Below, in pieces: positions 5,213-63,110 of a stretch of DNA of 64,000 nt. Within the stretch, counting starts at the first letter, position 1, and the number at the start of each line of letters is the position of its first letter. The stretch spans positions 139,359,418 to 139,423,417 of the forward strand of contig CP092864.1 in NCBI GenBank assembly GCA_030710605.1, in the 5' to 3' direction. Source of the DNA: Cordylochernes scorpioides (taxonomy: Eukaryota). Below the pieces are notes generated by a model that worked only from the letters and a program-made list of their open reading frames with translations, was not told the origin of the DNA and did not search any database. A program made the translations under genes and the position numbers.

Positions 5213-6468
5213 GGAGTACAAATAAGTTTTGAGGGATTTTTTTATAAATTCGAAGCTTTATTCAGAGAAATTAGTACAATATATTTCATTCAAAGTATTG
5301 TCCATCTTTAGCTACGACTTTTTCCCATCTTTCAGGCAGCATACGGATATCGTGTCGAAAAAATTCCTCGTCTTTTGAGGCGATCCAAACATTGACCCAA
5401 TTTTTCGCCTCTTCGTAAGAAGTGAAGTGCTGCTCGGCCAGGCCATGTGTCATCGAACGGAACATGTGGTATTCTGAAGGAGCAATGTCTGGTGAATACA
5501 GCGGGTGGGGTAGGACATCCCATTGAAGCGCCTCCAAAGTCTCCTTGACAACTTTTGCAACATGTGGCCGAGCGTTGTCGTGCTGATAGATCACCTTGTC
5601 ATGTCTTTTGGCATATAGTGGGCATTTAATCTTCAATGCTCGGCTTAATCGCATCAATTGTTGTTGGTAACGTTCTCCAGTGATGGTTTCGTTAGGCTGA
5701 AGTAGCTCATAGTAGATCACTCCGAGCTGATCCCACCAGATGCACAGCATTTGCTTCTTGCCATGAATATTCGGTTTGGCCGTTGAAGTTGATGCATGAC
5801 CGGGCTTAACCCACGATTTTCCGCGCTTTGGGTTGTCGTAGTGAATCCACTTTTCGTCCCCCGTCACGATTCGATGCAAAAAAACCCTTCCGATTTTGTC
5901 TTTTGAGCAGTAGTTCGCACGTGCAAATACGGCGCTCGATGTTTCCTGGCTTGAGTTCATATGTAACCCAATTTCCTTGTTTTTGCACCATACCCATGAC
6001 CTTGAGACGGTTCGAAATCGCTTGTTGAGTCACTCCCAAGGTTTCAGCGAGCTCCTCTTGAGTTTGGCTTGAATCTTCGTCCAATAAAGCCTCCAACTCA
6101 GCGTCTTCGAACTTTATTGGCCTCACTCCGCGTTCTTTGTCTCTGGTGTCAAAATTGCCACTTTTGAAACGCCGAAACCAGTACTCACATGATTTTATTG
6201 ATAGAGCATGTTTACCATATGCCTCACACAGCAATCGATGTCCATCAGTTGCACTTTTCTTCAAATTAAAACAAAAAAGCAGCGCTTCCCGCAAATTGTG
6301 TTTTGTTGGCAAAAAAGTTGACATGGTTAGAGCACCAAAAAAAAGTTCCTTACACTTGAGTAAAAGACTTCTTCTGATTTTTTTGGGGAAATGATGAAGG
6401 TCTGATGCTATTTATATAATATTTGTTGTGGCTTCTTTTGCAAATCCCTCAAAACTTATTTGTACTCC
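5213..6468 (-). mobile_element. Tc1/mariner (Mos1-like) DNA transposon, defective copy
   Basis: About 27-bp TIRs: ggagtacaaataagttttgagggattt (5213-5239) and its reverse complement (6442-6468). The internal transposase shows close similarity to Mos1. Confidence 0.85.
5286..6324 (-). pseudogene. mariner (Mos1-like) transposase, frameshifted. N-terminal HTH part is ORF 5806-6324; DDE/D part is ORF 5286-5960.
   Basis: Peptides match Mos1: 'LLFCF.LKK.A...HR.L.EA.G', 'HRIVTGDEKWI.Y.NPKR', 'WWDQ.GVIYYELL', 'HDNARPHVA', 'PHP.YSPD.APS.YH'. The two ORFs overlap in different frames, which indicates a frameshift. Confidence 0.85.
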
Positions 6469-6929
6469 AAATACATATGGAAGATGGACGTAGTTCCCGC
6501 AGGTCACCCGCGAGGCTTTTTTCTGTGTCACCAACTCTGCCCCCGCGCGCCAGGACCTCTTGATCCCTCTGATTGGTCGGTGGGAACTTGGACTGTCCAA
6601 CCGGCCGGCAGCCAGACGATTACATTTTCTCGGAGGGGGGGGGGGCCCGGGGGCAGGGAAGTCACATGCTTGCCGGCAGCCAATGGGCGCGTGCCGCCGT
6701 CAGATCGCCTGCGTTCTAGAGGGCGCTGCTCGTGAGCTAAGTAGAATAATTTGAATATATAGTTTTAATAATTGATTTATATATTTTTTAAAATAGCCTA
6801 TCGTCATCCCCGTTAATTTTTACCTATGTATGGAAATTTTGGTTTGAATTAGTGAACTACTGCGAATTTGTATACCGTGCATACAGACCAACAGACAAAC
6901 ATACAAACATTCATTTTTATATATATAGA

Positions 6930-8444: not shown

Positions 8445-8850
8445 CTAGCCGAATGACCCTGGCAACGCCCGTGTTTTACCCGATTGATTGTTTTGATTCA
8501 AATACTATTTGTTACAATTATAAATTGGCGCCTTAAATAAATGCATATATTAGTTAATAACTATAGCCTATGTGCTTTATCTGTCTATGTACTGTTGGCT
8601 TCCGTAGGCGTCTCTTACTGGGAAAAAGAAAGAGAGGATTCCATTTAGTTATTAACTAATATATGCATTTTTATTTAAGGAGCGACCTGCTCCAACACAA
8701 TAGTTACAAAAACCAAAAAGCGAGTGGGGGGGGGGCAAAGGTGGCGTGATCGTAGCCAACCAATAGGAGAGCGCCATTCCAGAAAAAAAGCAAACGGTGA
8801 CAGAGATGAAGAATTAAGAATGCATGACGCTCGTAACTGTATATAGAATA
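8445..8850 (-). mobile_element. Helitron-like element, family X (~410 bp)
   Basis: It begins CTAGccgaatgaccctggcaacgcccgtgttttacccgatt (reverse complement: hairpin, ~8 nt, CTAG|T). It ends …caaacggtgacagagatgaa…gacgctcgtaactgtatatagaata. Near-identical copies are at 10062-10470, 38440-38865 and 27764-28165. Confidence 0.6.
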
Positions 8851-9828: not shown

Positions 9829-10058
9829 TTAGGCACAATTTGGATTATAGATTATAAACACAAGGTAATAAGACCAAATCCAAATAAATAAATAGTGTGT
9901 GACGTTTCGGTAACAGCGTTGTTACCATCTTCAGACAAAAGTACTGAATAAGAAAATTTTACCACAGCATGTGGCTGAAAATGGTAACAACGCTGTTACC
10001 AAAACGTCAAACACTATTTATTTATTTGGATTTGGTCTTATTACTTTGTGTTTATAAT
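9829..10058. mobile_element. MITE-1 full copy
   Basis: Both arms are near-perfect. It abuts the Helitron-like element at 10062. Confidence 0.75.
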
Positions 10059-10061: not shown

Positions 10062-10470
10062 CTAGCCGAATGACCCGGGCAACGCCCGTGTTTTACCCGA
10101 TTGAGTGTTTTTATTCAAATACTATTTGTTACAATTATAAATTGGCGCCTTTTATAAATGCATATGTTAGTTAATAACTATAGCCTATGTGCTTTATCTG
10201 TCTATGTACTGTTGGCTTCCGTAGGCATCTCTTAGTGGGGAAAAAGAAAGAGAGGATTCCATTTAGTTATTAACTAATATATGCATTTATTTAAGGGGCG
10301 ACCCGCTCCAACACAATAGTTACAAAACGAAATAGCGAGTGGGGGGGGGCAAAGGTGGCGTGATCGTAGCCAACCAATAGGAAAGCGCCATTCCAAAAAA
10401 AAAGCAAATGGTGACAGAGATGAAAAATTATTAAAAACGCATGACGCTCGTAACTGTATATAGAATAATC
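10062..10470 (-). mobile_element. Helitron-like element, family X
   Basis: Same termini and body as 8445-8850. CTAG at 10062-10065 is preceded by T on the complementary strand. Confidence 0.6.
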
Positions 10471-10919: not shown

Positions 10920-13339
10920 CCCTTAAGCGGTCGCAATGGGTAAAAATTACCCAGAAGGAACTTTTCGAAAATATTTCTATATTAAAAAATATATATATTT
11001 AAAATATATTCTCAGTACCTTTCTAAATCTATCTAAAGATTATTATAATAAACCTATAATTTTAATTTTATGACATATATTCATTTTATTAGCATGTTTG
11101 GGTCAATTTTACCCAGTGCGACCTTTTGAGTTCTCATCATTGGGTAATTTTTACCCAGCGCGACCTTTTAACGCTTTTGGTTTTGGTTTGCGTAATTAAG
11201 TTTCGAGTTACTTTCTGGCTTCTTGTTGTTTGGTTTTGCTGCCCCAAGTGCAATAATACAATCTATTCTTCCAACAATAAGGTAGGATTTATATTTTATT
11301 TCCTCTTTTTACATTATTTTACATAAAATGCTTTCAAATGCTGATTTTCTCCGTGATTATAATAATATTCCAAATCCCGATGATGAGGAATCAGAAACTG
11401 ATGATCATATAGAAGAGAGGAATTGGAGTACAGACACTGAACAGTATACATTATCAGAAGAAGAAAACAATGAGGATCCAAGCTTCAATTACTATATAGG
11501 AAAGGACCAAAAGACTAAATGGAAGAAAGCTCTTCCCCCAAAAAATGTTCGAACTCGCAGTGAAAATATTATCACCCATCTACCAGGGGTAAAGGGTGAA
11601 GCAAAAAATGCTAAATCGATATTAGATTGTTGGAATCTCTTTATAAATGACAATATACTTGAATGCATAGTTACAAATACTAATATTTACATTAGGAATA
11701 TTCAGCAGAACTATAGCAGAGAAAGAGATGCTAATTTGACAAACCTACAGGAAATTAAAGCTTTATTGGGAATTATTTACTTTCTTGGGGTCATGAAAGC
11801 GAATAAATTGAATGGGCAAGAGATAGTACTGGATTTGAATTGTGTAGAATAGCTATGTCTGAAAACAGATTCCGATTTCTTCTCAGAGTAATTCGTTTTG
11901 ATGACAAAGCTAAAAGAAATGAAAGACTTCGTCAAGATGAATTAGCAGCTGTGAGATTGATTCTTGATACTTTTGTAAAAAATTGCCAAAAGCATTATTC
12001 TCCTTCGGAATATATAACGGTGGATGAAAAGCTTGACGCTTTCAGAGGGAAATGCAATTTCAGGCAGTATATTCCGAGTAAACACAATAAATATGGAATA
12101 AAATTATTTGCTCTCGTGGATTCAAAAATGTTTTATACTTGTAACTTGGAGATTTATTCAGGAAAAAACCCTGAAGGTCCTTACAATGTCAGCAACAGTC
12201 CAAGTGACGTTGTGGAACGATTGTGTGAGCCAATCAAGGGAACTGGCCGCAATGTAACAATGGATAACTGGTTCACCAGTTATTCTTTAGCTCTAAAACC
12301 TTTACAACAATTTTGACTAACAATTGTTGGTACCTTAAAAAGAAATAAAAAGGAAATCCCCTCAGAGTTTGTCATCAGCAGAGGTAGAAATGTACACACT
12401 AGTGTTTTTGGCTTTCAAAGTGAAATGACACTTCTTTCATACAAGCCTAAAGAGAATAAAGTTGTACTTATGCTTTCAACTCTGCACCACGATGCAAATA
12501 TAGATGATTCAACGGGAGAATTGAAAAAGCCAGAGATGATAATGTTTTATAATATGACAAAGGGTGGTGTAGATATGATGGACGAAATGACAGCTACATA
12601 TAACTGTGCTAGAAATTCAAGAAGATGACCCATGGTTATTTTTTATTCACTTTTAAATATTGGGGCAATAAATTCCCAGATAATTCATTTTGCAAATGGC
12701 AACGCATCAAAGGTTAAATCAAGACGTCATTTTTTAAAAACCTTATCCTTAGATCTTATTGAAGTGATGGTCAAAGTTCGCACAGTAAACGGAAGAATAC
12801 CATGTGAAATAAAGGAAAAGGCATCCGATATTTCTAATTTGTTAGAGCCTGGTCCATCTAAAAAGCCAAAAATAGGAAAAAGACATCGATGCAAGAAATG
12901 CCAGAAAGAAAAAAAGGACAAAAACTATTCAACATTGCCAGTACTGTTTTGCTTTTTTGTGTAAGGAACACTCTGTAATAATTTGTCAAGAATGTCATAA
13001 AGGACGAAACAAGTCCTAATTTCTATGAAAGGAAGTGATAACTTTCATACAAATTTATATTTTATAACCTATCTTCAATATATATTTTTATTTTCATAAA
13101 ATAGTCGAATATATCATAAATATTTGATATTTTGATTTGTTATTAATAAAATAAATAAAATATGATTTTTATATCTCAAAATTTTATGTAAAGTTATTTA
13201 ATAGACAAATCATTATTCTAACATAGAAAACAATAAAAATATTGAAAAGAATATTTGATTTATTTAGGTTTTTAAAAGTGGGTAAATTTTACCCACCGCG
13301 ACCTTTCAAGGTATAAAAGAGGGCGCGACCGCTGCCGGG
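10920..13339 (+). mobile_element. piggyBac-superfamily DNA transposon (family 1), near full length but decayed
   Basis: Flanked by TTAA (10916-10919 and 13340-13343). Termini are cccttaagcggtcgc… and …gcgaccgctgccggg (TIR ccc..agcggtcgc). Subterminal repeats 'gggtaaa(a)ttttacccag.gcgacctttt' occur at 10940, 11100-11170 and 13275. Confidence 0.8.
11328..13018 (+). pseudogene. piggyBac transposase (DDD domain plus C-terminal Cys-rich domain), broken into 4 ORFs
   Basis: Peptides 'FRFLLRVIRFDD', 'VDEKLDAFRGKCNFRQYIPSKHNKYGIKLFALVD', 'NVTMDNWFTS', 'MFYNMTKGGVDMMD', and the C-terminal 'RCKKCQKEKKDK…CQYCFAFLCKEHSVIICQECHKG' CRD. The ORFs sit in different frames. Confidence 0.85.
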
Positions 13340-13365: not shown

Positions 13366-13700
13366 CACAATTTGGATTATAGATTATAAACACAAGGTAA
13401 TAAGACCTAATACAAATAAATAAATAGTGTGTGACGTTTCGGTAACAGCGTTGTTACCATCTTCAGACAAAAGTACTGAATCATATATATCAGAAATGGA
13501 AATTTGCACATCACATACTTTGAGGACTATTAGAAGATCATCTTTTGACCATTTTCTATGACTGTCCTAACTCTACACAGAAGTGAGATTGTTTGATTCA
13601 GTACTTTTGTACTAAGATGGTAACAACGCTGTTACCGAAACGTCACACACTATTTATTTATTTGGATTTAGGTCTTATTACCTTGTGTTTATAATCATAC
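13366..13700. mobile_element. MITE-1 full copy with a ~120-bp internal insert shared with 18445-18545
   Basis: Both arms are intact. The internal 'atcagaaatggaaatttgcacatcacatactttgaggactattag…' also occurs at 18448. Confidence 0.7.
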
Positions 13701-17994: not shown

Positions 17995-18442
17995 ATATGT
18001 GTTATTAAGCGAACTATTATTAGTTATTTTAAAAGGCGAATTAGATCAGTTATATCTAAAAATGAAAATATATAAATAAATAAAACCTACCAAATATTTC
18101 AAATTAGAGCAGTTATTATATAAATATTTATATTATATGTGTTATTAAGTGAACTATTATTAATAAAATATTGAGAAGATTTAGATTTTAAACGTATTTA
18201 TAACCTTTTAGTACTTGATAGAGGGCGCTGTTCATGAGCTAAGTAGAATAATTTGAATATATAGTTTTAATAATTGATTTATATATTTTTTAAAATAGCC
18301 TATCGTCATCCCCGTTATTTTTTACCTATGTATGGAAATTTTGGTTTGAATTAGTGAACTACTGCGAATTTGTATACCGGGCATACAGACCAACAGACAA
18401 ACATACAAACATTCATTTTTATATATATAGATAGATATATAT
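17995..18442 (-). mobile_element. Helitron-like family B partial copy (5'-terminal part)
   Basis: It ends '…caaacattcatttttatatatatag' at 18440 and shares the 18215-18440 block with 6716-6928 and 38235-38420. Confidence 0.45.
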
Positions 18443-18595
18443 ATCAGAAATGGAAATTTGCACATCACATACTTTGAGGACTATTAGGTGATCATCTTTT
18501 GACCATTTTCTATGACTGTCCTAACTTTACACAGAAGTGAGATAGTTCCCAGATCTAAATGATTTACTCTCTTATACCAACCACTTTGTTTATAT

Positions 18596-18951
18596 CTTCT
18601 TCTTCTTTCTTATCTCCACTCAATCATATCAGGTTATCAAGCTTGTAGAGCTTGAAACTTGACAACCACCATGACTGGGTGAAGTAGAATGCGTCTGCCT
18701 TTGTCATTAAGACTGGGAGCACTACTCAGTGGCAGGCCGACTTAGCTCCAAAAGAAATGGCCGCCTCTGACATGAGGAACAGACGCCATGTGCAGCCGCT
18801 CCTAACATGGAGTACAAACGCTGCTCATCCTGTATCCCTGGATTAGGAGCCCTTACAGGGTACTATCAGCCGGACCAGCTGAACCCAGGTTTTTTAGTGA
18901 GCTTGTTACTGCTCCCCCTCCTCCTTTTTCATCCGGGCTTGGGACCGGCAA
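18596..18951 (-). mobile_element. SINE-1 full copy
   Basis: Same consensus as 25-392. It ends 'ccgggcttgggaccggcaa' at 18951. Confidence 0.7.
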
Positions 18952-19744
18952 GTGTTTATATACATTTTATAAACTGTTGCTTCATAAAGAACAGTATCAA
19001 CAGGAGAATAGACATCCCAGAATAATTCTGTTATACTCCAAATCAAGATTAAATAGCAACCATTTAATAAATCTTTCCCCCCCTTCCCTTCCCGTGCTCA
19101 CTGTTACTTTGCCTGTTGAAAAGTGAGAGCTCAAAAGCTCACGCTGTTTTTGTAAAAAAGAAACATATTGTGTACACTCTCAGATTGGTGCACTATGATG
19201 TTGGTACGTTTAGATTAAAATGGTCTCAAGCAAAGGTGACAATATATATATTTAAAGAGGATCAACTTTGTATACAAAAAGCAAACTAAAACGAATAAAA
19301 ACAACTGGTTTCTTTTTCCCGTAGATTACATAAGGCCTAGCGACGAAGTACGTCCATCTCATCAAGCAAGCTGTGCGCTCTACTCTACAAGCCTCACTAC
19401 CCTACCACGACAACTGCCGGCACAGGCAACATCGCCTTTTATATAGGCAAAAGATAAAACAATAGAAAAATGCAAAATAGCTATTTACATAAAATATAAA
19501 ATACAAATTATCTATGTTCCTAACAAAACATATTGTGTAAAGTTTTTTAAAATATTTTATACATGTAAATCTGTAAATATTTAATGCTAAGTTTCAGTTT
19601 GTTTGTTATGTTTCCTCTGTAATAGCCACAAATACTTCAATACTGCGTCTTAGAGGATAATAAATTTTAAAAATAATAAATCTTTTGACCCTCCATGTAA
19701 TGGAGAGCTATAGGCCTCTTGGAGAATGAAGGAAGAACCAATAA

Positions 19745-19864: not shown

Positions 19865-20625
19865 AAAATGTATCCACCTAAAACCGGTACAATTTCACAT
19901 TTGTACTATTTTTTCACATTAAAGAAGTGTTGTTCTCAAAGGGAGGTCTGAAATAGGTAATTTTTTTTTGTTGCTTATCCCAAGTACACGTGGTACAGGC
20001 CATGATAATCATGGTGGGTAGAAGTACCTAAACCCAGTACAATTTCACATTTGTACTATTTTTTTCACATTAAAGAAGTGTTGTTCTCAAAGGGAGGTCT
20101 GAAATAGGTAGTTTTTTTTTTGCTTATTCCTAGTACACGTGGTACAGGCCATGATAATCATGGTGGGTAGAAGTACCTAAACCCAGTACAATTTCACAAT
20201 TGTACTATTTTTTTCACATTAAAGAAGTGTTGTTCTCAAAGGGTGGTCTGAAATAGGTAGTTTTTTTTTGCTTATTCCTAGTACACGTGGTACAGGCCAT
20301 GATAATCATGGTGGGTAGAAGTACCTAAACCCAGTGCAATTTCACATTTGTACTATTTTTTTCACATTAAAGAAGTGTTGTTCTCAAAGGGAGGCCTGAA
20401 ATAGGTAGTTTTTTTTTGCTTATTCCTAGTACACGTGGTACAGGCCATGATAATCATGGTGGGTAGAAGTACCTAAACCCAGTACAATTTCACATTTGTA
20501 CTATTTTTTCACATTAAAGAAGTGTTGTTCTCAAAGGGTGGTCTGAAATAGGTAGTTTTTTTTTTGCTTATTCCTAGTACACGTGGTACAGGCCATGATA
20601 ATCATGGTGGGTAGAAGTAGGCGAA
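19865..20625. repeat. Satellite, ~127-bp unit × 6, derived from a SINE-2 3' end plus flanking sequence
   Basis: Each unit contains the reverse complement of 'ctacccaccatgattatcatggcctgtaccacgtgtactagg' and 'gggataagcaaaaaaaa'. Confidence 0.85.
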
Positions 20626-21904: not shown

Positions 21905-22232
21905 TTAGAAAAAGGAGGAGGGGGAGCAGTAACAAGCTCACTAAAAAACCTGGGCTCAGCTGGCCCAGCTGATAGTACCCTGTTAGGGCTCCTAATCCAG
22001 GGATACAGGATGAGCAGCATTTGTACTCCATGTTAGGAGCAGCTGCACATAGCGTTTGTTCCTCATGTCAGAAGCGGCCATTTCTTTTGAAGATAAGTCA
22101 GCCTACCACTGAGTAGTGCTCCCATTCTTAATGACAAAGGCAGACGCATTCTACTTCACACAGTCATGATGGTTGTCAAACAAGCTTGATACCCTAATAT
22201 GATTGAGTGGAGATAAGAAAGAAGAAGAAGAG
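21905..22232 (+). mobile_element. SINE-1 copy (+)
   Basis: aaaaaggaggagggggagcagtaacaagctcactaaaaaacctgggctcagctggcc … gattgagtggagataagaaagaagaagaag. Confidence 0.7.
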
Positions 22233-22575: not shown

Positions 22576-22885
22576 ATCTTCTTCTTCTTTCTTATCTCCA
22601 CACTGGGTGAAGTAGAATGCGTCTGCCTTTGTCATTAAGACTGGGAGCACTACTCAGTGGCAGACCGACTTAGCTCCAAAATAAATGGCCGCCTCTGACA
22701 TGAGGAACAGACACCATGTGCAGCCGCTCCTAACATGGAGTACAAACGCTGCTCATCCTGTATTTCTGGATTAGAAGCCTTTACAGGGTAATATCAGCCG
22801 GGCCAGCTGAGCCCAGGTTTTTTAGTGAGCTTGTTACTGCTCCCCCTCCTCCTTTTTCATCCGGGCTTGTGACCGGCAAGGGCGG
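22576..22885 (-). mobile_element. SINE-1 copy with an internal/tail deletion
   Basis: tcttcttctttcttatctccacac|tgggtgaagtagaatgcg… It lacks the 'tcaatcatattagggtatcaag…' segment. Confidence 0.65.
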
Positions 22886-26756: not shown

Positions 26757-27072
26757 CTTCTTCTTCTTCTTTCTTATCTCCACACTGGGTGAAGTAGAAT
26801 GTGTCTGCCTTTGTCATTAAGACTGGGAGCACTACTCAGTGGCAGGCCGACTTAGCTCCAAAAGAAATGGCCGCCTCTGACATGAGGAACAGACGCCATA
26901 TGCAGCTGCTCCTAACATGGAGTACAAACACTGCTCATCCTTTATCCCTGGATTAGGAGCCCTTACAGGGTACTATCAGCCGGGCCAGCTGAGCCCAGGT
27001 TTTTTAGTGAGCTTGTTACTGCTCCCCCTCCTCCTTTTTCATCTGGGCTTGGGACCGGCAAAGGCGGAGTTA
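26757..27072 (-). mobile_element. SINE-1 copy, short-tail variant
   Basis: tcttcttcttctttcttatctccacactgggtgaag… through …gggaccggcaaaggcggagtta. Confidence 0.65.
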
Positions 27073-27763
27073 ATACAAAGTAATAACGCGTCACTATATA
27101 TAACGAATGAAGACATTATTTAAATGTAATTCTACTATCCTAAAAGCTTATATCCATAGTTTGCTTAAATACCATTTCTAAGATTCCACCCTTCAGCGCA
27201 GCATATAAAAGCAAAATGATCCAATACAGTATTGGTGCTCTAAAGAAGCGGTCTGGTAGATTAAAAAAAAAAAAAATTGGCAAAATCACTAGGAGGGTTC
27301 ACCACTGATGAGCCAAGCTCTCCTAATATTTTTCATCGCAGTAAGGACAGTAAAAGTTTGATTTATGTATGAAAAGAAACATTTGCATCTTAATGTCTTC
27401 AAGAGAATAAATGATCATTATAAAGCATCAATGCCACAAAATCTTGATTTTTTAGATGAAAAGTCAAACCCTAGAACAAATACGCCATTGGACATCATGT
27501 TGACATCAGCAGCTGTAGATTCCTCCATTGTACAAGCCGGCCCAACTTGATACAGCAAATGTCTGACAACAACCTCAGGTAGGGAAGTTGAATCAGGAGG
27601 AAGGAGCGTGGAGACAATGGAGGTGTTGGTTGGGTCAGCTCCCCCATACCAATTAAGAATTTCATCACAGAGTTGAAATACTTCCTCCCACATATCATTA
27701 TTTTTGGTGGTGGTGGTGGTCATTGAATCACACTTCTTTCTTCCCCTTCCCCCTTTAAGGAAT

Positions 27764-28165
27764 TCTATATACTGTTACGAGTGTCATGCGTTCTTAATAA
27801 TTTTTCATCTCTGTCACCGTTTGCTTTTTTTTGGAATGGCGCTCTTCTATTGGTTGGCTACGATCACGCCACCTTTGCCCCCCCCCCCACTCGCTTCTTC
27901 GTTTTTGTAACTATTGTGTTGGAGCGGGTCGCTCCTTAAATAAATGCATATATTAGTTAATAACTAAATGGAATCCTCTCTTTCTTTTTCCCAGTAAGAG
28001 ACGCCTACGGAAGCCAACAGTACATAGACAGATAAAGCACATAGGCTATAGTTATTAACTAACATATGCATTTATTTAAGGCGCCAAATTATAATTGTAA
28101 CAAATAGTATTTGAATCAAAACATTCAATCGGGTAAAACACGGGCGTTGCCCGGGTCATTCGGCT
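27764..28165 (+). mobile_element. Helitron-like element, family X, + orientation
   Basis: Reverse complement of the 10062-10470 copy. It ends …cgggcgttgcccgggtcattcggCTAG|T at 28165. Confidence 0.6.
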
Positions 28166-28345
28166 AGTGTGAAGAGAAGAGAGATTAAGGTTGAAACTAC
28201 TTTATTACAATCCATATAAGTTTAAATATAAAATACTGAATATAAATAAGGCTAAATAATGATAAATATATGGATAAAATAAATATAAATGTATAAGGTA
28301 ATTTATAAATATACATATACAGTTATTTAAGAGGCGTAATATTCT

Positions 28346-29509: not shown

Positions 29510-29872
29510 TCTTCTTTCTTATCTCCACTCAATCATATTAGGGTATCAAGTTGTGACCCTTGATGGTATTTGACAACCATCATGTCTGGGTGAAGTAGGA
29601 TGCGTCTGCCTTTGTCATTAAGACTGGGAGCACTACTCAGTGGCAGGCCGACTTAGCTCCGAAAGAAATGGCCGCCTCAGTCATGAGGAACAGACGCCAT
29701 GTGCAGCCGCTCCTAACAAGGAGTACAAACGCTGCTCATCCTGTATCCCTGGATTAGGAGCCCTTACAGGGTACTATCAGCCGGGCCAGCTGAACCCAGG
29801 TTTTTTAGTGAGCTTGTTACTGCTCTCCCTCCTCCTTTTTCATCCGGGCTTGGGACCGGCAAAGGCGGAGTT
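29510..29872 (-). mobile_element. SINE-1 full copy
   Basis: Consensus match along the full length. Confidence 0.7.
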
Positions 29873-31589: not shown

Positions 31590-32280
31590 AACAGTCACCT
31601 ACTTTTATCCACCGTGATTATCATGGCCTGTACCATATTTGTGTGTATTAGGGATAATAATAAAAAATAGTAATAACTGAAATGGGCATGTGTCAAAATA
31701 AGCAGTCGCCAACTACCCACCATGATTATCATGGCCACATGTACTATGGATAATAATAAAAAATAGTAATAACTGAAATGGGCATGTGTCAAAATAAGCA
31801 GTCGCCAACTACCCACCATGATTATCATGGCCACATGTACTATGGATAATAAGAAAAATAGTAATAACTGAAATGGGCATGTGTCAAAATAAGCAGTCGC
31901 CAACTACCCACCATGATTATCATGGCCACATGTACTATGGATAATAAGAAAAATAGTAATAACTGAAATGGGCATGTGTCAAAATAAGCAGTCGCCAACT
32001 TCCCACCATGATTATCATGGCCACATGTACTATGGATAATAAGAAAAATAGTAATAACTGAAATGGGCATGTGTCAAAATAAGCAGTCGCCAACTACCCA
32101 CCATGATTATCATGGCCACATGTACTATGGATAATAAGAAAAATAGTAATAACTGAAATGGGCATGTGTCAAAATAAGCAGTCGCCAACTTCCCACCATG
32201 ATTATCATGGCCTGTACCACATGTACTATGGATAATAAGAAAAATAAAATAACTGAAATGGGCATGTGTCAAAATAAATA
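31590..32280. repeat. Satellite, ~121-bp unit × ~5.5, derived from the SINE-2 3' region
   Basis: Unit 'aaaaatagtaataactgaaatgggcatgtgtcaaaataagcagtcgccaactacccaccatgattatcatggccacatgtactatggataataag'. It causes the spurious overlapping ORFs at 31595-32272. Confidence 0.85.
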
Positions 32281-34152: not shown

Positions 34153-34408
34153 TGCCGGTCCCAAGCCCGGATGAAGAAGGAGGAGGGAGAGCAGTAACAA
34201 GCTCGCTAAAAAACCTGGGCTCAGCTGGCCCAGCTGATAGTACTTTGTAAGGGCTCCTAATCCAGGGATACAGGATAAGCAGCGTTTGTACTCCATGTTA
34301 GGAGCGGCAGCTTCACTTGGCGTATGTTCCTCATGTCAGAGGTGGCCATTTCTTTTGGAGCTAAGTCGGCAATTTCACCCAATCATGAAGTTAAGAAAGA
34401 AGAAGAAG
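34153..34408 (+). mobile_element. SINE-1 copy, internally deleted, adjacent to the minisatellite
   Basis: The head 'ttgccggtcccaagcccggatgaagaaggaggagggagagcagtaac…' runs to 'gaagttaagaaagaagaagaag'. Confidence 0.6.
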
Positions 34409-34950
34409 ACTCAACACTGACTTTAATTCAACCACCTATAACTCAACACTGACTTTAATTCAACCACTTATAACTCAACACTGACTTTAATTCAACCACC
34501 TATAACTCAACACTGACTTTAATTCAACCACCTATAACTCAACACTGACTTTAATTCAACCACCTATAACTCAACACTGACTTTAATTCAACCACCTATA
34601 ACTCAACACTGACTTTAATTCAACCACCTATAACTCAACACTGACTTTAATTCAACCACCTATAACTCAACACTGACTTTAATTCAACCACCTATAACTC
34701 AACACTGACTTTAATTCAACCACCTATAACTCAACACTGACTTTAATTCAACCACCTATAACTCAACACTGACTTTAATTCAACCACCTATAACTCAACA
34801 CTGACTTTAATTCAACCACTTATAACTCAACACTGACTTTAATTCAACCACCTATAACTCAACACTGACTTTAATTCAACCACCTATAACTCAACACTGT
34901 CTTTAATTCAACCACCTATAACTCAACACTGACTTTAATTCAACCAATTT
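34395..34950. repeat. Minisatellite, 31-bp unit 'tcaacactgactttaattcaaccacctataac' × ~18
   Basis: Strictly contiguous units with occasional single-base variants. It is embedded in a 'ttaattcaac' MITE-family element (33960-35040). Confidence 0.9.
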
Positions 34951-35529
34951 TTCACTTACCAATTAGCCTTTTTACTTAAGTTCAACCAACTATTAAAGCA
35001 ACCAAAAATTGGGATCCCATGGGATGTTGAATTAAAGGAGTTGGAGAGACTGTATACATCTACAGAGTATAAGAGAAAAAGACTGATGATCCTTGAGTAG
35101 AGAAACATCTACAAACACATAATTGTATAAAGTAATGGCAGGTATGTTGCATTCTATGTCGCTGACGGGGAAAGTTAAATAAAGAGATGATGAGAGAGTG
35201 GCCAGCCATTTAGAATTGGCTTCCAGGGTCACGCCGTCAGGCTGCTGAGGTGGAGGAAGTTGGTTGACTCATTCAAGGTTTCCCACTCTGGGAATTTCTT
35301 CTGACTGACAACTACCTGTTGTTGTGACTACACTTAGTGCATGTGAGAAATGGTCTGCCCTGTTCATTTAAATAACTCTGAGGAATGTGCTCTATAGCCT
35401 AAACTTGATCCTTTTTTCAAGTCCAATTCTCTTACTTTCCAACTTCTACATCTGCTGCTTCTAAAAACATTGTAGCAAATTACACATGACTAAAAATATA
35501 TTTTGAGAAATCCTTTTTTTTTTTAATAA

Positions 35530-35835
35530 ACTAGCCGAATGACCCGGGCAACGCCCGGGTTTTACCCGATTAAATACTTTTATTCAAATACTATTCGTTA
35601 CAATTATAAATTGGCGCCGTGGATGTCATTCTTGTATAATATATAAATGAGTTTTAAAAATTGTAAAAAAATGCATCGGCCGGGAATTGAACCCGGACTG
35701 CCCTCGTGGCAGGCAAGCATTCTACCACTGAACCACCGATGGTTATGAGAAATGGCCATATTTGGGTATTTATTCCATTCACAAAGCAAACGGTGACAGA
35801 ATTGATTAAGAAAGAATTGATTATGACGCTGATAA
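35530..35835 (-). mobile_element. Helitron-like element, tRNA-Gly-carrying variant
   Basis: CTAGccgaatgacccgggcaacgcccgggttttacccgatt terminus at 35530. The internal family-X segment is replaced by '…ggcgccgtggatgtcattcttgtataatatataaatgagttttaaaaattgtaaaaaaa' plus the tRNA-Gly-like copy. It then rejoins 'caaacggtgacagaattgatta…gacgctgataactgtatat'. Confidence 0.55.
35672..35743 (-). pseudogene. tRNA-Gly(GCC)-like copy inside a Helitron-like element, acceptor stem degenerate
   Basis: Reverse complement is accatcggtggttcagtggtagaatgcttgcctGCCacgagggcagtccgggttcaattcccggccgatgca. The 5' end CCATCGG fails to pair with the 3' end at position 1. Confidence 0.55.
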
Positions 35836-36232
35836 CTGTATATATTAATACTCTAATGAATGTATCACAGTTAATAGATTTTTTAAAAAGTATCCTTGCA
35901 ATACACTTGAATCTCTCTGTAACAACATCACTTGGGACCAATACACTCGAGGACATAACTGAAGAATCTGTTCCTTTTAGCACATATATCAGGATTCAGA
36001 CAATAACTGAAAAATGTTTGGTACAAAGTGACCTTTATTGAAGACACATGAGATAACCAATGTGAACAAAATTGCCTGTCTCCTTAAAAAAATAGATGAC
36101 AGGTGGCATCAAAGACTTTCCACTTCTTCAAGTTTTGTCCGTGAGTGTATTTTATTTTGTTATAAACAACATTAGTTATTAAAGAGGTTTTATAAGGACT
36201 TCGATATATATATATATATTGTTTTGAAAATA

Positions 36233-37098
36233 GAGCAATCCATACTTAATTCATTAGATAATAAATGGCATATATTGGATTTAATAAAATATTTATTTTG
36301 CCAATATTTCGGCTGGCTGAACGCCAACCTTTATCGAGGCATTACATTTTTGTATACACAAACTCAGCGCCGCATAGTGTTATAATATCACAGTTGAAAT
36401 CAATTAAAATACAGAGTAGGTGGAAGAAAATTTGTGTATGAAAAAATTATTATAAAAAATGCAATCAAAAATGTAAAATATCTTAAAATATAAAAGGAAA
36501 AAAAGTTCTATCTTATATTTAAAAAATTGTAATAAGTACATAAAATAATTCATTAATAACTCATAAAGAGATAAATGTAAAAATGTGTGTATCTATTAAA
36601 ACATTTGAAAATAAATTTTAAATGATTTAAACAATAAACTGTAAGAACCTTATAAAAAGTTTTTAAATACCCACATTTTTAAAAACTTTTTATAAGGTTC
36701 TTACAGTTTATTGTTTAAATCATTTAAAATTTATTTTCAAATGTTTTAATAGATACACACATTTTTACATTTATCTCTTTATGAGTTATTAATGAATTAT
36801 TTTATGTACTTATTACAATTTTTTAAATATAAGATAGAACTTTTTTTCCTTTTATATTTTAAGATATTTTACATTTTTGATTGCATTTTTTATAATAATT
36901 TTTTCATACACAAATTTTCTTCCACCTACTCTGTATTTTAATTGATTTCAACTGTGATATTATAACACTATGCGGCGCTGAGTTTGTGTATACAAAAATG
37001 TAATGCCTCGATAAAGGTTGGCGTTCAGCCAGCCGAAATATTGGCAAAATAAATATTTTATTAAATCCAATATATGCCATTTATTATCTAATATATAT
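36233..37098. repeat. Giant near-perfect palindrome (about 430-bp arms, about 9-nt centre 'tacccacat' at about 36672)
   Basis: I checked the right arm against the reverse complement of the left arm at several points (36300-36660 vs 36680-37040). The left arm at 36210-36400 is homologous to 46205-46400. Confidence 0.8.
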
Positions 37099-38425: not shown

Positions 38426-38439
38426 TATATATTATTACT

Positions 38440-38865
38440 AGCCGAATGGCCCGGGCAACGCCCGTGTTTTACCCGATTGAATGTTTTTATTCAAATACTA
38501 TTTGTTACAATTATAAATTGGCGCCTTAAATAAATGCATATATTAGTTAATAACTATAGCCTATGTGCTTTATCTGTCTATGTACTGTTGGCTTCCGTAG
38601 GCGTCTCATACTGGGAAAAGGAAAGAGAGGATTCCATTTAGTTATTAACTAATATATGCATTTATTTAAAGAGCGACCCGCTCCAAAACAATAGTTACAA
38701 AAACGAAAGAGCGAGTGGGGGAGGCATGATGGGGGGGGCGAGGGCAAAGGTGGTGTGATCGTAGCCAACCAATAGGAGTGCGCCATTCCAAAAAAAAAAG
38801 CAAAAGATGACAGAGACGACTGATGAGGAATGACGCTCGTAACTGTATATAGAATTACTATATGA
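38440..38865 (-). mobile_element. Helitron-like element, family X
   Basis: CTAGccgaatggcccgggcaacgcccgtg… through …gacgctcgtaactgtatatagaat. It lies directly adjacent to the previous fragment. Confidence 0.6.
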
Positions 38866-39766: not shown

Positions 39767-39889
39767 GTGAGTAGTTGATCCATTCTTTCTTTTCCACTTA
39801 ACTTCACCCTCTCGCTGATTAACATGATTGTTTAAAAGGCATTGTCCTTTTATTTATGAGTCTTATATCCATTGTTTTGCCAACCTATA

Positions 39890-40265
39890 TACTCAGAGAT
39901 GGCTAAACCTGACACCTCTACATCTCAAATTTTTGTATCAATTGACTAAGAGGGTCAATAAAATATTCTTGAATTGTCAATTGTCTACATCTCAAATTTT
40001 TGTATCAATTGACTAAGAGGGTCAATAAAATATTCTTGAATTGTCAATTGTCTACATCTCAAATTTTTGTATCAATTGACTAAGAGGGTCAATAAAATAT
40101 TCTTGAATTGTCAATTGTCTACATCTCAAATTTTTGTATCAATTGACTAAGAGGGTCAATAAAATATTTTTGAATTGTCAATTGTCTACATCTCAAATTT
40201 TTGTATCAATTGACTAAGAGGGTCAATAAAATATTTTTGAATTGTCAATTGTCTACATCTCAAAT
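39890..40265. repeat. Tandem repeat, ~61-bp unit × 6 ('tctacatctcaaatttttgtatcaattgactaagagggtcaataaaatattcttgaattgtcaattg')
   Basis: Near-identical units about 120 bp downstream of syntaxin exon 3. Confidence 0.85.
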
Positions 40266-40429
40266 CCCCTAAATATCAAACAAGAATTTGCGATTATTAA
40301 GGTGGTAAATATCGTGCACTTCCAGGTGGAAAAGTTTCTTTTCAAAATCTTCAATTCACAAATCCCACAAGCTTCACCTTAATAATGATGCAAGAGATTA
40401 TTTTGTTGAAGCATTTGTGGTGATGATTA

Positions 40430-41639: not shown

Positions 41640-42330
41640 TACTAGCGGACGTACCCGGCTTCGCCCGGGTAAAACCCGAGTAAAGGTTTGTCTAACGAAT
41701 CTCTCGATAAAGTGAACATTTTTTCCCGGTCCCTTGAAAAATACTCGATAAGTTGAATAAAATCAATATTAATTGGTTCTCTCGGTAATTGGAAGTTAAA
41801 AGAATAGTATCTTGCCTTGGAATTGTATCATTATTCTTGTATGGATGTACCTGGCTTCGCCCGGGTTTTACCCGAGTAAAGGTTTGTCTAACGAATTTCT
41901 CGATAAAGTGAACATTTTTTCCCGGTCCCTTTAAAAATACTTGATAAGTTGAATAAAATCAATATTAATTGGTTCCCTCGGTAATTGGAAGTTAAAAGAA
42001 TAGTATCTTGCCTTGAAATTGTATCATTATTCTTGTCTCAAATAAATTGCCGTGTCATCCTGAATTTTGACTTTCCTAATTTTCTACATTACAAAATCAT
42101 CGTATCATCATGATAATATTTAGAGCAGATTGTTGAATTATAACAGATAAATTAAAATATTTATCTTGATTATTTTTAGGCGAAAAGTTATTTCAAAAAT
42201 TTTATTTGCTAGAAACCTTCCCAGTACTATACTCAATAACTTCCCAAAGTTTCATGGCGTTCCAATGAGTGGTTTGGTCAGGCATAAAGGACACACACAC
42301 ATACATTCATTTTTATATATATAGATTTAC
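41640..42330 (-). mobile_element. Helitron-like element, family A (2 internal tandem units)
   Basis: CTAGcggacgtacccggcttcgcccgggtaaaacccgag… through …cacacatacattcatttttatatatatag. Colinear with 673-1590. Confidence 0.55.
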
Positions 42331-49559: not shown

Positions 49560-49725
49560 ATGAGGCACAATTTGGATTGTAGATTATAAACACAAGGTAA
49601 TAAGACCAAATCCAAATAAATAAATAGTGTGTGACGTTTCGGTAACAATGCTGTTATCGAAACGTCACACACTATTTATTTATTTGGATTTGGGTTTATT
49701 ACCTTGTGAAGTAAATTATAGGTGA
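49560..49725. mobile_element. MITE-1 copy with a deleted central loop
   Basis: gcacaatttggattgtagattataaacacaaggtaataagaccaaatccaaataaataaatagtgtgtgacgtttcggtaacaatgctgttatcgaaacgtcacacactatttatttatttggatttgggtttattaccttgtg. Confidence 0.65.
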
Positions 49726-50586: not shown

Positions 50587-50895
50587 TTGTAAGTTTTGGA
50601 GACAAATTTTGCAAATTCAATAAAAATATCTTTATAAATAGAAAAATGATAGGCACAATTTGGATTATCTCTATATATATAAAAGTCAATGTCTGTCTGT
50701 TTCGTGATAAACTCAAAAACTACTGAACCAATTGGTACCAAATTTTGTATGTCGCTTTTTATAAACCTGAGGAAAATTTTAGGCTACATTTTGATTAGTA
50801 TTTTTGGCTATTTCTTTTTTTCATTTGAAGAACTTTTTTTTACGCAGAGTAATCCGGAATTGAATGAATACCCAAATATGGCCATTTTTTTATAA

Positions 50896-50966
50896 GCATC
50901 CGTGGTTCAGTGGTAGAATGCTCGCCTGCCACGCGGGCAATCCGGGTTCGATTCCCGGCCGATGCA
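50896..50966 (+). tRNA. tRNA-Gly (anticodon GCC), near-canonical, embedded in a Helitron-like repeat
   Basis: gcatccgtggttcagtggtagaatgctcgcctGCCacgcgggcaatccgggttcgattcccggccgatgca. It is close to the canonical eukaryotic tRNA-Gly-GCC. The D-arm and T-arm (GGTTCGATTCC) are intact, with one acceptor-stem mismatch (C6:C67). An oligo-T follows immediately. Confidence 0.65.
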
Positions 50967-50983
50967 TTTTTTTTTTTTTTTTT
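50967..50983 (+). terminator. RNA polymerase III terminator (T17 run) directly after the tRNA-Gly
   Basis: An uninterrupted run of 17 T starts one base after the tRNA 3' end. Confidence 0.6.
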
Positions 50984-51237
50984 ACAATTTTTAAAACTCA
51001 TTTATATTATATATAATATAAATATATATTATTATATCAACTATATTAATTAAATCAAATACCTAAACACTAATATAATATAATTTTTGCCATCACACAC
51101 ACTTTTTTCCTGTAGTTTGTGTTACTTCTGTATTGCTATTCTATGGCACTTCTAATATTTATTATTGATGTACTTTCAGTATGAAGGAAATTGCAATCCG
51201 GGGAATTCTCTGGCGAAGCCGGGTCATACGTCTAGTA

Positions 51238-51975: not shown

Positions 51976-51980
51976 TAAAG

Positions 51981-52322
51981 CCCGGATGAAAAAGGAGGAG
52001 GGGGAGCAGTAACAAGCTCACTAAAAAACCTGGGTTCAGCTGGCCTGGCTGATAGTACCCTGTTAGGGCTCCTAATCCAGGGATACAGGATGAGCAGCGT
52101 TTGTACTCCATGTTAGGAGCGGTTGCACATGGCGTCTGTTCCTCATGTCAGAGGCGGCCATTTCTTTTGGAGCTAAGTCGGCCTGCCACTGAGTAGTGCT
52201 CCCAGTCTTAATGACAAAGGCAGACGCATTCTACTTCACACAGTCATGATGGTTGTCAAACAAGCTTGATGACCTAATATGATTGAGTGGAGATAAGAAA
52301 GAAGAAGAAGAGATTTAATCTT
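51981..52322 (+). mobile_element. SINE-1 full copy (+)
   Basis: It starts immediately after a LINE-a 3' fragment and ends '…gattgagtggagataagaaagaagaagaag'. Confidence 0.7.
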
Positions 52323-53099: not shown

Positions 53100-53410
53100 C
53101 TTCTTCTTCTTCTTTCTTATCTCCATTCAATCATATTAGGGTATCTAGCTTGTAAAGCTTGAGACTTTTGATAGTGTCTGCTGACAATCATTAGACTGGG
53201 TGAAGTAGAATGCGTCTGCCTTTGTCATTAAGACTGAGAGCACTACTCAGTGGCAGGCCGACTTAGCTCTAAAATAAATGGCCGCCTCTGACATGAGGAA
53301 CAGACGCCATGTGCAGCCGCTCCTAACATGGAGTACAAACGCTGCTCATCCTGTATCCCTGGATTGGAGCCCTTACAGGGTACTATCAGCAGGGCCAGCT
53401 GAGCCCAGGC
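53100..53410 (-). mobile_element. SINE-1 copy, head truncated
   Basis: Tail 'ttcttcttcttctttcttatctccattcaatcatattagggtatc…', truncated at '…gccagctgagcccagg'. Confidence 0.6.
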
Positions 53411-54179
53411 AAATGCGGAGTTTGAAAAAAGAATAAATTCATACAATCCAAACTGTGCTTTGTCATTTTGTACCATCTTTTCACTTAATTCAAATGTTTC
53501 TCGTAATTCCAATTAGCCTATTTGCTTTAATTTAACCGGCTTTAATTCACCATGACTTTAATCCAGCCAAAAATTCAGATCCCTTGGGCTGTTGAATTAA
53601 AGAATTTTGACTGCATAGGCTGTTGGCCATCATCATTTAGCAACTCCCTTCGGGTTGCCTTGCCCAATCCGAGGTCGATAGTTGTGGTAAAATCTAGCGC
53701 GCCACTCTCCTGACGCGCGTGGTTCGTTTCGCTCCAAACCCGCCAAAGACGATGATCCCTCCGTTATATCGCTCGCACAGACCACCACGAGATCCGTGAA
53801 ACAGGGGACCCGTCCGAGCTCCCGCGGATTTTCGAACAGCGACAGATGTACCGCCCCAGCCAAGCTCCCCGCCTGAAAGATGCATATTCTCTTCCTATAC
53901 AAATACTTATTGCCTTGATAAACACCCCAAATTCTTGGTTACATTGTCATTGAGGAGGTTTAAAATGATCAGAGAATGGTGTGTGAGAATAGTTATTTCA
54001 GGGCTAGACATATAGGTTAGGGCAGGGATCATCAAACTTTTGGGTTAGAAGAGTCAAAAAGTACAATTTACAAAATTTCAAAGTTTTTTAAAGAGCCACA
54101 TAATTTGTTCTTGCCAACAATAAATAGTTAAAATTTTACACAAATAAATTTACTGGTAATGCGTTTCTTTTAAATATCA

Positions 54180-57839: not shown

Positions 57840-57958
57840 ATTTTCACATTTGTAGACATGTGGTGCACTTATAGTAAAAGCAGTCACTTACTTCTACTTC
57901 TACCCACCTTGATTATCATGGCCCGTACCACGTGTACTAGGGATAAGCAAAAAAAAAA
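57840..57958 (+). mobile_element. SINE-2 3' part
   Basis: tttcacatttgtagacatgtggtgcacttatagtaaaagcagtcac…ctacccaccttgattatcatggcccgtaccacgtgtactagggataagcaaaaaaaaaaa. Confidence 0.6.
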
Positions 57959-57959
57959 A

Positions 57960-58245
57960 CCCGATTAAATGCTTTTATTCAAATACTATTCGTTACAATT
58001 ATAAATTGGCACCGTGGATGTCATTCTTGTATAATATATAAATGAGTTTTAAAAATTGTAAAAAAAAAAAAAATGCATCGGCCGGGAATCAAACCCGGGC
58101 CGCCCGCGTGGCAGGCGAGCATTCTACCACTGAACCACCAATGGTTATGAGAAATGGCCATATTTGGGTATTTATTCCATTCACAAAAGCAAACGGTGAC
58201 AGAATTGATTACGAAAGAATTGATTATGACGCTGATAACTGTATT
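57960..58245 (-). mobile_element. Helitron-like tRNA-Gly-carrying variant, 3'-truncated (no CTAG or hairpin)
   Basis: It starts 'cccgattaaatgcttttattcaaatactattcgttacaattataaattggcaccgtggatgtcattc…' and is colinear with 35569-35835. It abuts a SINE-2 tail at 57958. Confidence 0.5.
58074..58145 (-). pseudogene. tRNA-Gly(GCC)-like copy inside a Helitron-like element, acceptor stem degenerate
   Basis: Reverse complement is ccattggtggttcagtggtagaatgctcgcctGCCacgcgggcggcccgggtttgattcccggccgatgca. It has an A-run (oligo-T on the - strand) after the 3' end. Confidence 0.55.
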
Positions 58246-58416
58246 ATACTTAATAATAAAGTCTCTGAAATGTTTGCCTAATGGAGATGTGACATGTCAT
58301 CTCATGGCTTATTGGATCTCCCTAGCTACTACCAGCTGTCAGAGTTGGTGGTATCTAGGAGTTAAACACGTGGATCTACTCTCACTTTGATAAACTGACT
58401 GTCTTCTGTGTGCCAG

Positions 58417-58859: not shown

Positions 58860-59230
58860 AAAAAAACACAATTTGGATTATATATAATCCAAATATATAT
58901 ATATAATAGTGTGACATTTCGGTAGCAGCATTGTTACCATCATCAAACAAAAGAATAGATGAGTTATTTATTCTTTTGTCTGATAATGGTAACAATACTC
59001 TTACCAAAACGTCACACACTATTAAATTATTATAAAGAATAAATGAGTTATTTATTCTTTTGTCTGATGATGGTAACAATGCTGTTACCAAAACGTCACA
59101 CACTATTAAATTATTATAAAGAATAGATGAGTCATTTATTCTTTTGTCTGATGATGGTAACAATGCTGTTACCAAAACGTCACACGCTATTAAATTATTT
59201 GGATTAGGTCTTATTTTCTTGTATTAATAA
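58860..59230. mobile_element. MITE-1 copy whose right arm is triplicated in tandem (~88-bp unit × 3)
   Basis: The unit 'aatagatgagttatttattcttttgtctgatgatggtaacaatgctgttaccaaaacgtcacacactattaaattattataaag' repeats at 58965, 59040 and 59125. Confidence 0.6.
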
Positions 59231-62404: not shown

Positions 62405-62896
62405 GCAATGGATGGATATAATCTATATTTATATAAAAATGAATGTATGTGTGTCTGTCCTTTATGCCTGACCAAACCACTCATTGGAACGCCATGAAAC
62501 TTTGGGAAGTTATTTAGTATAGTACTGGGAAGGTTTCTAGCAAATAAAATTTTTGAAATAACTTTTCGCCTAAAAATAATCAAAATAAATATTCTAATTT
62601 ATCTGTTATAATTCAACAATCTACTCTAAATATTATCATGATTTTGTAATGTAGAAAATTAGGAAAGACAAAATTCAGGATGACACGGCAATTTATTTGA
62701 GACAAGAATAATGATACAATTCCAAGGCAAGATACTATTCCTTTAACTTCCAATTACCGAGGGAACCAATTAATATTGATTTTATTCAACTTATCGAGTA
62801 TTTTTCAAGGGATCGGGAAAAAATGTTCACTTTATCGAGAGATTCGTTAGATAAATCTTTACTCTGGTAAAACCCGGGCGAAGCCGGGTACATCCT
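62405..62896 (+). mobile_element. Helitron-like element, family A, + orientation, 5' part shortened
   Basis: The 5' end is 'atatttatataaaaatgaatgtatgtgtgtctgtcc'. The 3' end is …aaacccgggcgaagccgggtacatcctCTAG|T (62893-62896). Confidence 0.55.
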
Positions 62897-63110
62897 CTAG
62901 TGATCTATAAAAATAAAGGTTGGCTCTCCCATCAAGTAGATGTCAAAACTAGACACCACCTAGTGACTGTCTCTGTAACTAGTGGACTCGAGTCGTTGAC
63001 AAAGCCAGAACACCCTCACTGATATGAGTTCACTAGTTAGTCTAGACAGTCAATAGATGGTGTCTAGGTTTGACATCTACTTTGATGGGAGAGCCAACTT
63101 TTATTCCTAT
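62895..63110. mobile_element. P2-family foldback element
   Basis: Arms are 'aaaggttggctctcccatcaagtagatgtcaaaactagacaccacctagtgactgtc' and its reverse complement. Confidence 0.6.

Follow-up and report, generated by a model that had tools for sequence, protein, structure and literature searches.

The region described here is a 64-kb window of Cordylochernes scorpioides DNA (contig CP092864.1, forward strand, positions counted from the first nucleotide of the window), and all copies, counts, and comparisons reported below were drawn from this single window. When the whole window was scanned with ARAGORN, exactly three tRNA genes were called within the 64 kb. Every one of them is a tRNA-Gly(GCC) gene, and each lies inside a short transposon with the features of a Helitron (copies A, B, and C; Table 1).

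Three tRNA-Gly(GCC) genes and their carriers

All three tRNA genes scored above the RF00005 gathering score of 29 bits in Rfam, kept the GCC anticodon, and were followed by a run of T residues. An upstream flank, AATACCCAAATATGGCCATTT, and a downstream flank, ACAATTTTTAAAACTCATTTATAT (starting at 50984 in copy B), were exact in all three copies, and chance matches to either string were found in 0 of 100 shuffles. In three of three copies, the sense strand of the tRNA was also the 5′-to-3′ strand of the Helitron. These results bear out the initial annotation of this DNA, which had described three tRNA-Gly(GCC) copies in a constant orientation, each followed by a T run and embedded in the same two flanks.

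TABLE 1 Locations in the window of the tRNA genes, the elements that carry them, tRNA-less relatives, and intact insertion sites
Feature	Position	Strand	Details
Copy A, non-autonomous Helitron	35531-35844	-	314 bp; starts TATATACAG, ends ...CCCGGGCGTTGCCCGGGTCATTCGGCTAG then T
Copy A, tRNA-Gly(GCC)	35672-35742	-	ARAGORN; Rfam RF00005, 44.6 bits
Copy A, T7 run	35665-35671	-	Directly after the discriminator base
Copy A, 3′ subterminal hairpin	35542-35560	-	Intact; 8-bp stem, 3-nt loop; ends 11 nt from the terminus
Copy B, non-autonomous Helitron	50668-51235	+	568 bp; 5′ TCTCTATATATAT..., 3′ ...GGCGAAGCCGGGTCATACGTCTAG; hairpin decayed
Copy B, 160-bp tRNA module	50857-51016	+	~39 bp upstream, tRNA, T run, ~33 bp downstream
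Copy B, tRNA-Gly(GCC)	50896-50966	+	ARAGORN; Rfam RF00005, 59.9 bits
Copy B, T17 run	50967-50983	+	Directly after the discriminator base; form of an RNA polymerase III (Pol III) terminator
Copy C, A-type carrier	57959-58248	-	3′ hairpin and CTAG lost at abutting poly(A)-tailed repeat
Copy C, tRNA-Gly(GCC)	58074-58144	-	ARAGORN; Rfam RF00005, 54.7 bits
Copy C, T14 run	58060-58073	-	Directly after the discriminator base
tRNA-less member	8445-8848	-	Head and tail match A/C; ~250-bp interior different
tRNA-less member	10062-10465	-	5′ TTCTATATACAG, 3′ GGCTAG; in the same MITE-like site as copy B
tRNA-less member	27763-28167	+	Head and tail match A/C
tRNA-less member	38438-38854	-	Head and tail match A/C
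Intact paralogous site GGATTA/TAGATT	9842-9853	+	Empty-site reference; junction 9847/9848
Intact paralogous site GGATTA/TAGATT	13374-13385		Junction 13379/13380
Intact paralogous site GGATTA/TAGATT	49574-49585		Junction 49579/49580

Copies A and C share one carrier. They were 93% identical over 297 bp (blastn, gaps counted), with 99.0% and 98.1% identity in the carrier sequence flanking the tRNA, and their outer flanks were unrelated, the common sequence stopping at the element head. The repeat that abuts copy C is a D11 copy (57885-57956). A 75-bp head and an 88-bp tail of the A/C carrier are common to four copies that have no tRNA (at 8445, 10062, 28167, and 38438). Relative to copy A, these members showed 73 to 77% identity in the head and 91 to 93% in the tail, and their ~250-bp interior was entirely unlike that of A and C. 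Conserved ends around a swapped interior, as A, C, and the tRNA-less copies have, are typical of cargo-carrying Helitrons.

Copy B matched A and C over a 160-bp module that includes the tRNA (85% identity to A and 88.8% to C, blastn), while the rest of its body matched neither of them, apart from generic termini. One tRNA module therefore lies on two carriers, A/C and B, and not on the single repeat variant proposed in the initial annotation. The extent of the module is the same on both carriers, and its edges are sharp.

When contig collections were scanned, a 21-mer from the upstream flank matched one metagenome contig (OFEQ01089736.1), a eukaryote-looking sequence of 1 kb in which 25 nucleotides (positions 214 to 238) are identical to the upstream flank of copy B. 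A tRNA is absent from this contig, its similarity to the window goes no further, and it was uninformative. Searches with the downstream flank and with the 3′ end of the Helitron gave zero matches in the genome and viral contig collections.

Helitron termini and insertion sites

In the definition of canonical Helitrons, the element starts with TC at its 5′ end and finishes with CTRR at its 3′ end, a 16- to 20-nucleotide palindrome lies ~11 bp before the 3′ terminus, and the insertion splits an A from a T without creating a target site duplication (TSD) (Thomas et al. 2014, PMC4067079). The motif CCGGGTCATWCGKCTAG was found nine times in the window, relative to 0.11 occurrences expected by chance. 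At each of these nine ends, a GC-rich hairpin (consensus CCCGGGC-GTT-GCCCGGG) lies 8 nucleotides upstream of the terminal CTAG, which reads TTAG in one of the nine. The base after each hairpin/CTAG end is a T, and the sequence beyond it varies between copies. Three further 3′ ends are of a sister type, CCGGGCGAAGCCGGGTACGTCCGCTAG-T, giving a total of 12 Helitron 3′ ends in the window, and several heads begin with TCTATATATATAAAA. A terminal CTAG is present in copies A and B and in 10 other members (one of them with TTAG); copy C is without a 3′ end.

The copy A hairpin folds as single-stranded DNA with a free energy of -10.1 kcal/mol (z = -2.66), and the tRNA-less relatives have a 3′ hairpin similar to it. 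The fold of the copy B hairpin (-2.4 kcal/mol) was not better than that of shuffled sequences, its stem having decayed via C>T changes. At the 5′ end, copy B starts with TC, as do the heads at 6929, 18431, 42325, and 62422; the tRNA-less subfamily starts with TTC, and A and C begin with TATATAC or TATAATAC, without TC. No inverted repeat joins the ends of copy A, copy B, or the tRNA-less member at 38438 (seed of 7, length of at least 10).

Empty sites for these insertions were provided by a palindromic repeat that resembles a MITE (miniature inverted-repeat transposable element). This MITE-like repeat reads GGCACAATTTGGATTA followed by TAGATTATAAACAC without a break at 9854, 13386, and 49586, and a diverged copy lies near 484. 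Two other copies of the repeat are split at that position, exactly between A and T, one by copy B (TCTCTATATAT...GTCTAG) and the other by the tRNA-less relative at 10062-10465 (TTCTATATAC...GGCTAG), with no duplicated bases in either case. Copy B, tRNA included, is therefore a 568-bp insertion relative to the intact paralogous sites. Copy A and the tRNA-less members at 8445, 28167, and 38438 are also bordered by A...T, a junction that was read from the sequence at the element edges alone.

Taken together, the insertion of copy B at an A/T junction, the near-identity of A and C within unrelated flanks, and the 12 shared 3′ ends support, on a firmer footing than was available initially, the earlier proposal that a Helitron-like unit carries the tRNA and its T run inside it. 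The element coordinates originally given were near the mark and have been refined to those in Table 1. Given their 3′ CTAG, a hairpin ~11 nucleotides from the end, and A-T insertion without a TSD, the carriers are best classed, on the features of their ends, as short non-autonomous canonical Helitrons.

In the Helentron/HINE pattern, insertion occurs within TT, terminal T runs are variable, and subterminal inverted repeats are present (PMC4067079). A Helentron/HINE/DINE-1-like class was rejected for the carriers, since they insert at A-T, a single T is present at the empty-site junction, and subterminal inverted repeats are absent. A likeness of the copy B head (GTCTGTCTGT...) to Helentron/DINE-1-like elements was considered and dropped on the same grounds of an A-T target and no inverted repeats.

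No Rep/Hel gene was found among the open reading frames (ORFs) of the window, where the transposase-like ORFs of at least 130 amino acids were only mariner-like and piggyBac-like; of these, the piggyBac ORF alone was searched against a protein database. The termini that a Rep/Hel partner would be expected to match are 5′ TCTATATA... and 3′ ...CCCGGGCGTTGCCCGGGTCATTCGGCTAG.

Copy B and the tRNA-less relative at 10062-10465, whose interiors are unalignable, occupy the identical nucleotide of the MITE-like repeat. This shared target nucleotide could reflect a strong target preference or composite amplification followed by replacement of the interior. Other Helitrons are also present in the window. 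A sister subfamily (677-1367, 41641-42325, and 62422-62900) has a body of tandem ~197-bp units and heads that read TCTATATATATAAAAATGAATG; a 3′ hairpin is found in each ~197-bp unit and CTAG at the last unit only. Another Helitron (5158-6929, minus strand) has its head at 6929 and a hairpin/TTAG tail at 5158 and contains a nested mariner-like element, with terminal inverted repeats (TIRs) at ~5212-5240 and 6453-6480 and overlapping ORFs at 5286-5960 and 5806-6324. The overlap of these reading frames suggests that the transposase is frameshifted. Over 220 nucleotides, a second Helitron head, at 18431, matches the head at 6929 with 97.7% identity.

State of the tRNA genes and neighboring repeats

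The three tRNAs were compared with a canonical tRNA-Gly(GCC), which we take to be the appropriate reference and which two of the three copies back at 8 of the 10 variable positions. Three positions (linear numbering: 1, 44, and 46) are ambiguous as to the ancestral state. From parsimony and pairing, we infer that the ancestor of the three tRNAs was a fully paired canonical tRNA-Gly(GCC). Relative to this ancestor, copy B has four changes (three of them in the variable loop) and a C·C mismatch at 6:67, and its A and B boxes are intact. Copy C has three changes, a C·C mismatch at 1:72, and a B box altered by C>T. Copy A is the most degraded, with six changes that include C1·C72, an anticodon-stem G·A mismatch, and a G>A substitution within the B box. 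No copy forms a fully paired cloverleaf, and one acceptor-stem pair is broken in each of the three; the initial annotation had assigned this loss to A and C only.

The A-box region is identical in three of three copies. The B box reads GGTTCGATTCC in copy B only, GGTTCAATTCC in copy A, and GGTTTGATTCC in copy C, such that, by comparison with the general A- and B-box consensus, both Pol III boxes are kept by copy B only. The T runs, for which a minimum of four residues is usual downstream of a functional tRNA gene, have 7 (A), 17 (B), and 14 (C).

Copies A and C allow the decay of the tRNA to be measured against that of its carrier. Seven of the 10 substitutions between them fall inside the 71-nucleotide tRNA, a segment that accounts for 25% of the alignment (P = 0.0037 by the binomial test and P = 0.003 by Fisher's test). 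The tRNA is 90.1% identical between the two copies, relative to the 99.0% and 98.1% identity of the carrier flanks, a divergence ~7-fold that of the carrier. Five of the seven tRNA substitutions are CpG transitions, and the tRNA contains 9 CpG dinucleotides in 71 nucleotides, relative to 6 in 210 nucleotides of carrier. The window as a whole has a GC content of 35.7%, is dense in interspersed and tandem repeats, and has an observed/expected ratio of 0.54 for CpG versus 1.02 for GpC. This shortage points to CpG loss over a long period, which would fit germline methylation of cytosines in a repeat-rich region.

By these comparisons, the tRNA is the part of the element that decays fastest, the opposite of the outcome expected if a working gene were under purifying selection, and this decay fits the loss of CpG through methylation in a CpG-depleted region. 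Since the tRNA decays faster than the carrier, and mostly through CpG transitions, the pattern argues for the neutral decay of a passenger and against either a SINE (short interspersed nuclear element) precursor or a maintained source of tRNA-Gly loci, along the lines suggested initially. In the variable loop, copy A reads CAGT, copy B CAAT, and copy C CGGC, with two substitutions common to A and B. This reticulate pattern could be a trace of gene conversion between tRNA-Gly copies, or the copies may have decayed in parallel.

Several other repeats lie around the elements. A perfect inverted repeat of 415 nucleotides (36253-37092), located ~400 bp from copy A, is 100% complementary, with a 10-nucleotide spacer and (TA)n on both sides; this may be a foldback or palindrome of very recent origin, or else an artefact of assembly. 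A 32-bp tandem array (34281-35080) of ~25 units with nearly 100% identity is separated by ~450 bp from the 3′ terminus of copy A, and further tandem arrays have periods of 95 (31663-32233), 67 (39850-40332), 148 (19964-20565), and 84 (58950-59201). A piggyBac-like transposase (11328-12316, plus strand) is split into two ORFs; the best matches of the ORF at 11328-11852 were Cordylochernes scorpioides proteins, with 69 to 70% identity over most of its length and 89 to 97% over short stretches.

A repeat of ~300 to 380 nucleotides with a (CTT)n/(AAG)n end, which resembles a short interspersed nuclear element (SINE), is present at 18590-18962 and in at least nine further copies (e.g., 79-378, 22577-22876, 26759-27058, 29560-29859, and 53170-53469 and, inverted, 21908-22207 and 51978-52287). 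This repeat was considered as a tRNA-Gly-derived SINE and rejected, as no tRNA was detected in it by ARAGORN or Rfam and no link to the tRNA genes was found. Its sub-threshold Rfam matches, to twister-P1 (25 bits; gathering score, 67) and mir-67 (25 bits; gathering score, 53), are most likely due to chance.

Origin and significance of the tRNA cargo

Where the elements begin and end, how they inserted, the placement of the tRNA inside them, the module they have in common, and the way the tRNA is decaying can all be read directly from the window. With these in hand, we consider it likely that a Helitron family took up a tRNA-Gly(GCC) module as passenger cargo, which is now decaying without purifying selection and is presumably without function. 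Short non-autonomous Helitrons would have acquired ~160 bp of host DNA, consisting of a complete tRNA-Gly(GCC) gene and its T-run terminator, bordered by ~40 bp of 5′ and ~35 bp of 3′ flanking sequence. A host tRNA-Gly locus may have been copied into the Helitron by template switching, filler-DNA repair, or chimeric transposition. Since the module lies between Helitron ends on two backbones, it would have either moved across backbones, by recombination or template switching, or been captured twice, from loci that share their flanks. Carrier and module would have spread together to new sites by rolling-circle transposition, catalyzed by an unseen Rep/Hel element. The internal Pol III promoter and the terminator would travel along, and a fresh copy would potentially be transcribable anywhere. 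Because the donor locus was not seen, we use the word "captured" conditionally.

Several observations weigh against this explanation. The A/C carrier begins with TATATAC, not TC, and the tRNA-less subfamily begins with TTC. The decayed hairpin of copy B and the lost 3′ end of copy C leave copy A as the only structurally complete carrier, and neither a donor tRNA-Gly locus nor an autonomous Rep/Hel partner was seen within the single 64-kb window. The three copies lie within 23 kb and might reflect local events. Simple decay is complicated by copy A, which has the carrier and C1 of copy C but the two variable-loop changes of copy B. Finally, the occurrence of one module on two backbones could mean that the module is favored rather than neutral.

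A favored module would be one that is functional and has been exchanged and retained by Helitrons, either as a TFIIIC/Pol III chromatin barrier or accessibility site or as a dispersing source of expressed tRNA-Gly(GCC) or tRNA fragments. If so, Helitrons would be a DNA-level route to tRNA gene family expansion. Besides the presence of the same module on two unrelated carriers, copy B fits this idea in that it retains both promoter boxes, the anticodon, and a long T run and scores 59.9 bits; the variable loop, which is canonical in copy C and changed in A and B, could likewise reflect gene conversion with active genes. However, all copies have a broken acceptor-stem pair, conserved B-box positions are changed in A and C, and the divergence of the tRNA segment has been ~7-fold faster than that of the AT-rich carrier, opposite to the effect of purifying selection. 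We therefore regard a functional module as improbable.

The sharp boundaries of the module and its equal extent on both carriers would also be expected of an independent mobile unit of ~160 bp, MITE-like or another DNA element, that contained the tRNA and entered two Helitrons separately, with no capture of a host gene by Helitrons. The module edges, however, have no TIRs or other inverted repeats and no TSDs or other duplications. They show only 4 to 5 nucleotides of microhomology (GGAAT on the left and ACAA on the right), and no solo copy of the 160-bp module was found within the window. Since edges with microhomology alone fit template switching or recombination, and not an independent transposon, an origin of this kind seems very unlikely.

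Given that tRNA genes are often clustered, three copies within 23 kb could alternatively represent a local tRNA-Gly cluster that arose by segmental duplication, in which case the Helitron-like ends would be coincidental or Helitrons would favor landing beside tRNA genes. This possibility is hard to credit, since copy B with its tRNA is an insertion relative to intact paralogous sites, the homology between A and C ends at the element head with unrelated outer flanks, and the element sequence on both sides of the tRNA is also found in tRNA-less copies elsewhere in the window.

The least probable explanation is a retroposed tRNA-derived SINE, or an incipient one, such as the SINE precursor envisaged in the initial annotation: the copies do resemble such SINEs in being repeated tRNA-like sequences with A and B boxes that form an internal Pol III promoter, many of which are scored as pseudogenes, but homology extends ~40 to 100 bp upstream of the tRNA, including ~40 bp common to the copies that a Pol III transcript would not contain, and continues past a T-run terminator placed directly after the tRNA; there is no LINE-like or A-rich retroposon tail and no TSD; and the ends are those of Helitrons, which would have moved the tRNA as DNA.

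Uptake of a tRNA-Gly(GCC) module as Helitron cargo, the explanation that we prefer, can be set beside several known systems. Helitrons routinely capture host DNA, and their uptake of fragments of protein-coding genes has been amply documented. The elements described here resemble the canonical gene-capturing Helitrons of maize and bat (PMC4067079) in their CTAG and GC-rich palindrome ~11 nucleotides from the 3′ end, A-T insertion without a TSD, TC/TT start, conserved ends with swapped interiors, and lack of coding capacity. They differ in that the cargo is a complete Pol III unit and not a protein-coding gene fragment, the elements are 0.3 to 0.6 kb long, and the A/C subfamily is without a 5′ TC. 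The tRNA-less subfamily shares a 5′ TT, a 3′ CTAG, and A-T insertion with the Proto-Helentron of Phytophthora infestans (PMC4067079), a likeness that comes from the DNA ends alone; the latter is an autonomous oomycete element of ~14 kb. Dada DNA transposons are also physically tied to tRNA genes, since they insert at tRNA and small nuclear RNA genes as targets (PMC3706591). A Dada insertion lies at a fixed point within such a gene, whose sequence is duplicated as the TSD. Targeting of this type was rejected here, as the tRNA is contiguous, lies in the element interior as cargo, and is not interrupted as a target would be.

There is hardly any record of a Helitron whose cargo is a complete non-coding RNA gene, and the sole related case that we found in the literature searched is the tRNA-Cys cluster on chromosome 5 of Arabidopsis thaliana (PMC10701932). 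This cluster overlaps the Helitron annotations ATREP5, HELITRONY1D, and ATREP10B, and its authors discuss capture of the tRNA by a Helitron, with CTAG in each unit (PMC10701932, PMC7544208). Helitron predictors did not provide confirmation, and capture was left as a hypothesis that "would represent the first example" (PMC10701932). Common to both organisms is the location of the tRNA genes within repeat units that are annotated as Helitrons. The Arabidopsis genes form one tandem cluster at a single locus, whereas the copies described here are dispersed and have defined ends and one empty-site proof. Full-text literature searches returned no report of a Helitron carrying tRNA-Gly and no pseudoscorpion transposable element study.

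These elements are thus a new Helitron family with an uncommon, cleanly delimited cargo, a complete Pol III gene, and not a new kind of system. Given their defined boundaries and one empty-site proof, they would illustrate cleanly how a Pol III gene that is complete with internal promoter and terminator is spread at the DNA level. Since the copies seen are decaying, any biological effect they have is probably minor. In arachnid genome annotations, copies of this kind raise the numbers of tRNA genes and pseudogenes counted; software that classes every tRNA-like repeat as a SINE can mistake them for SINEs, and they could seed new tRNA loci.

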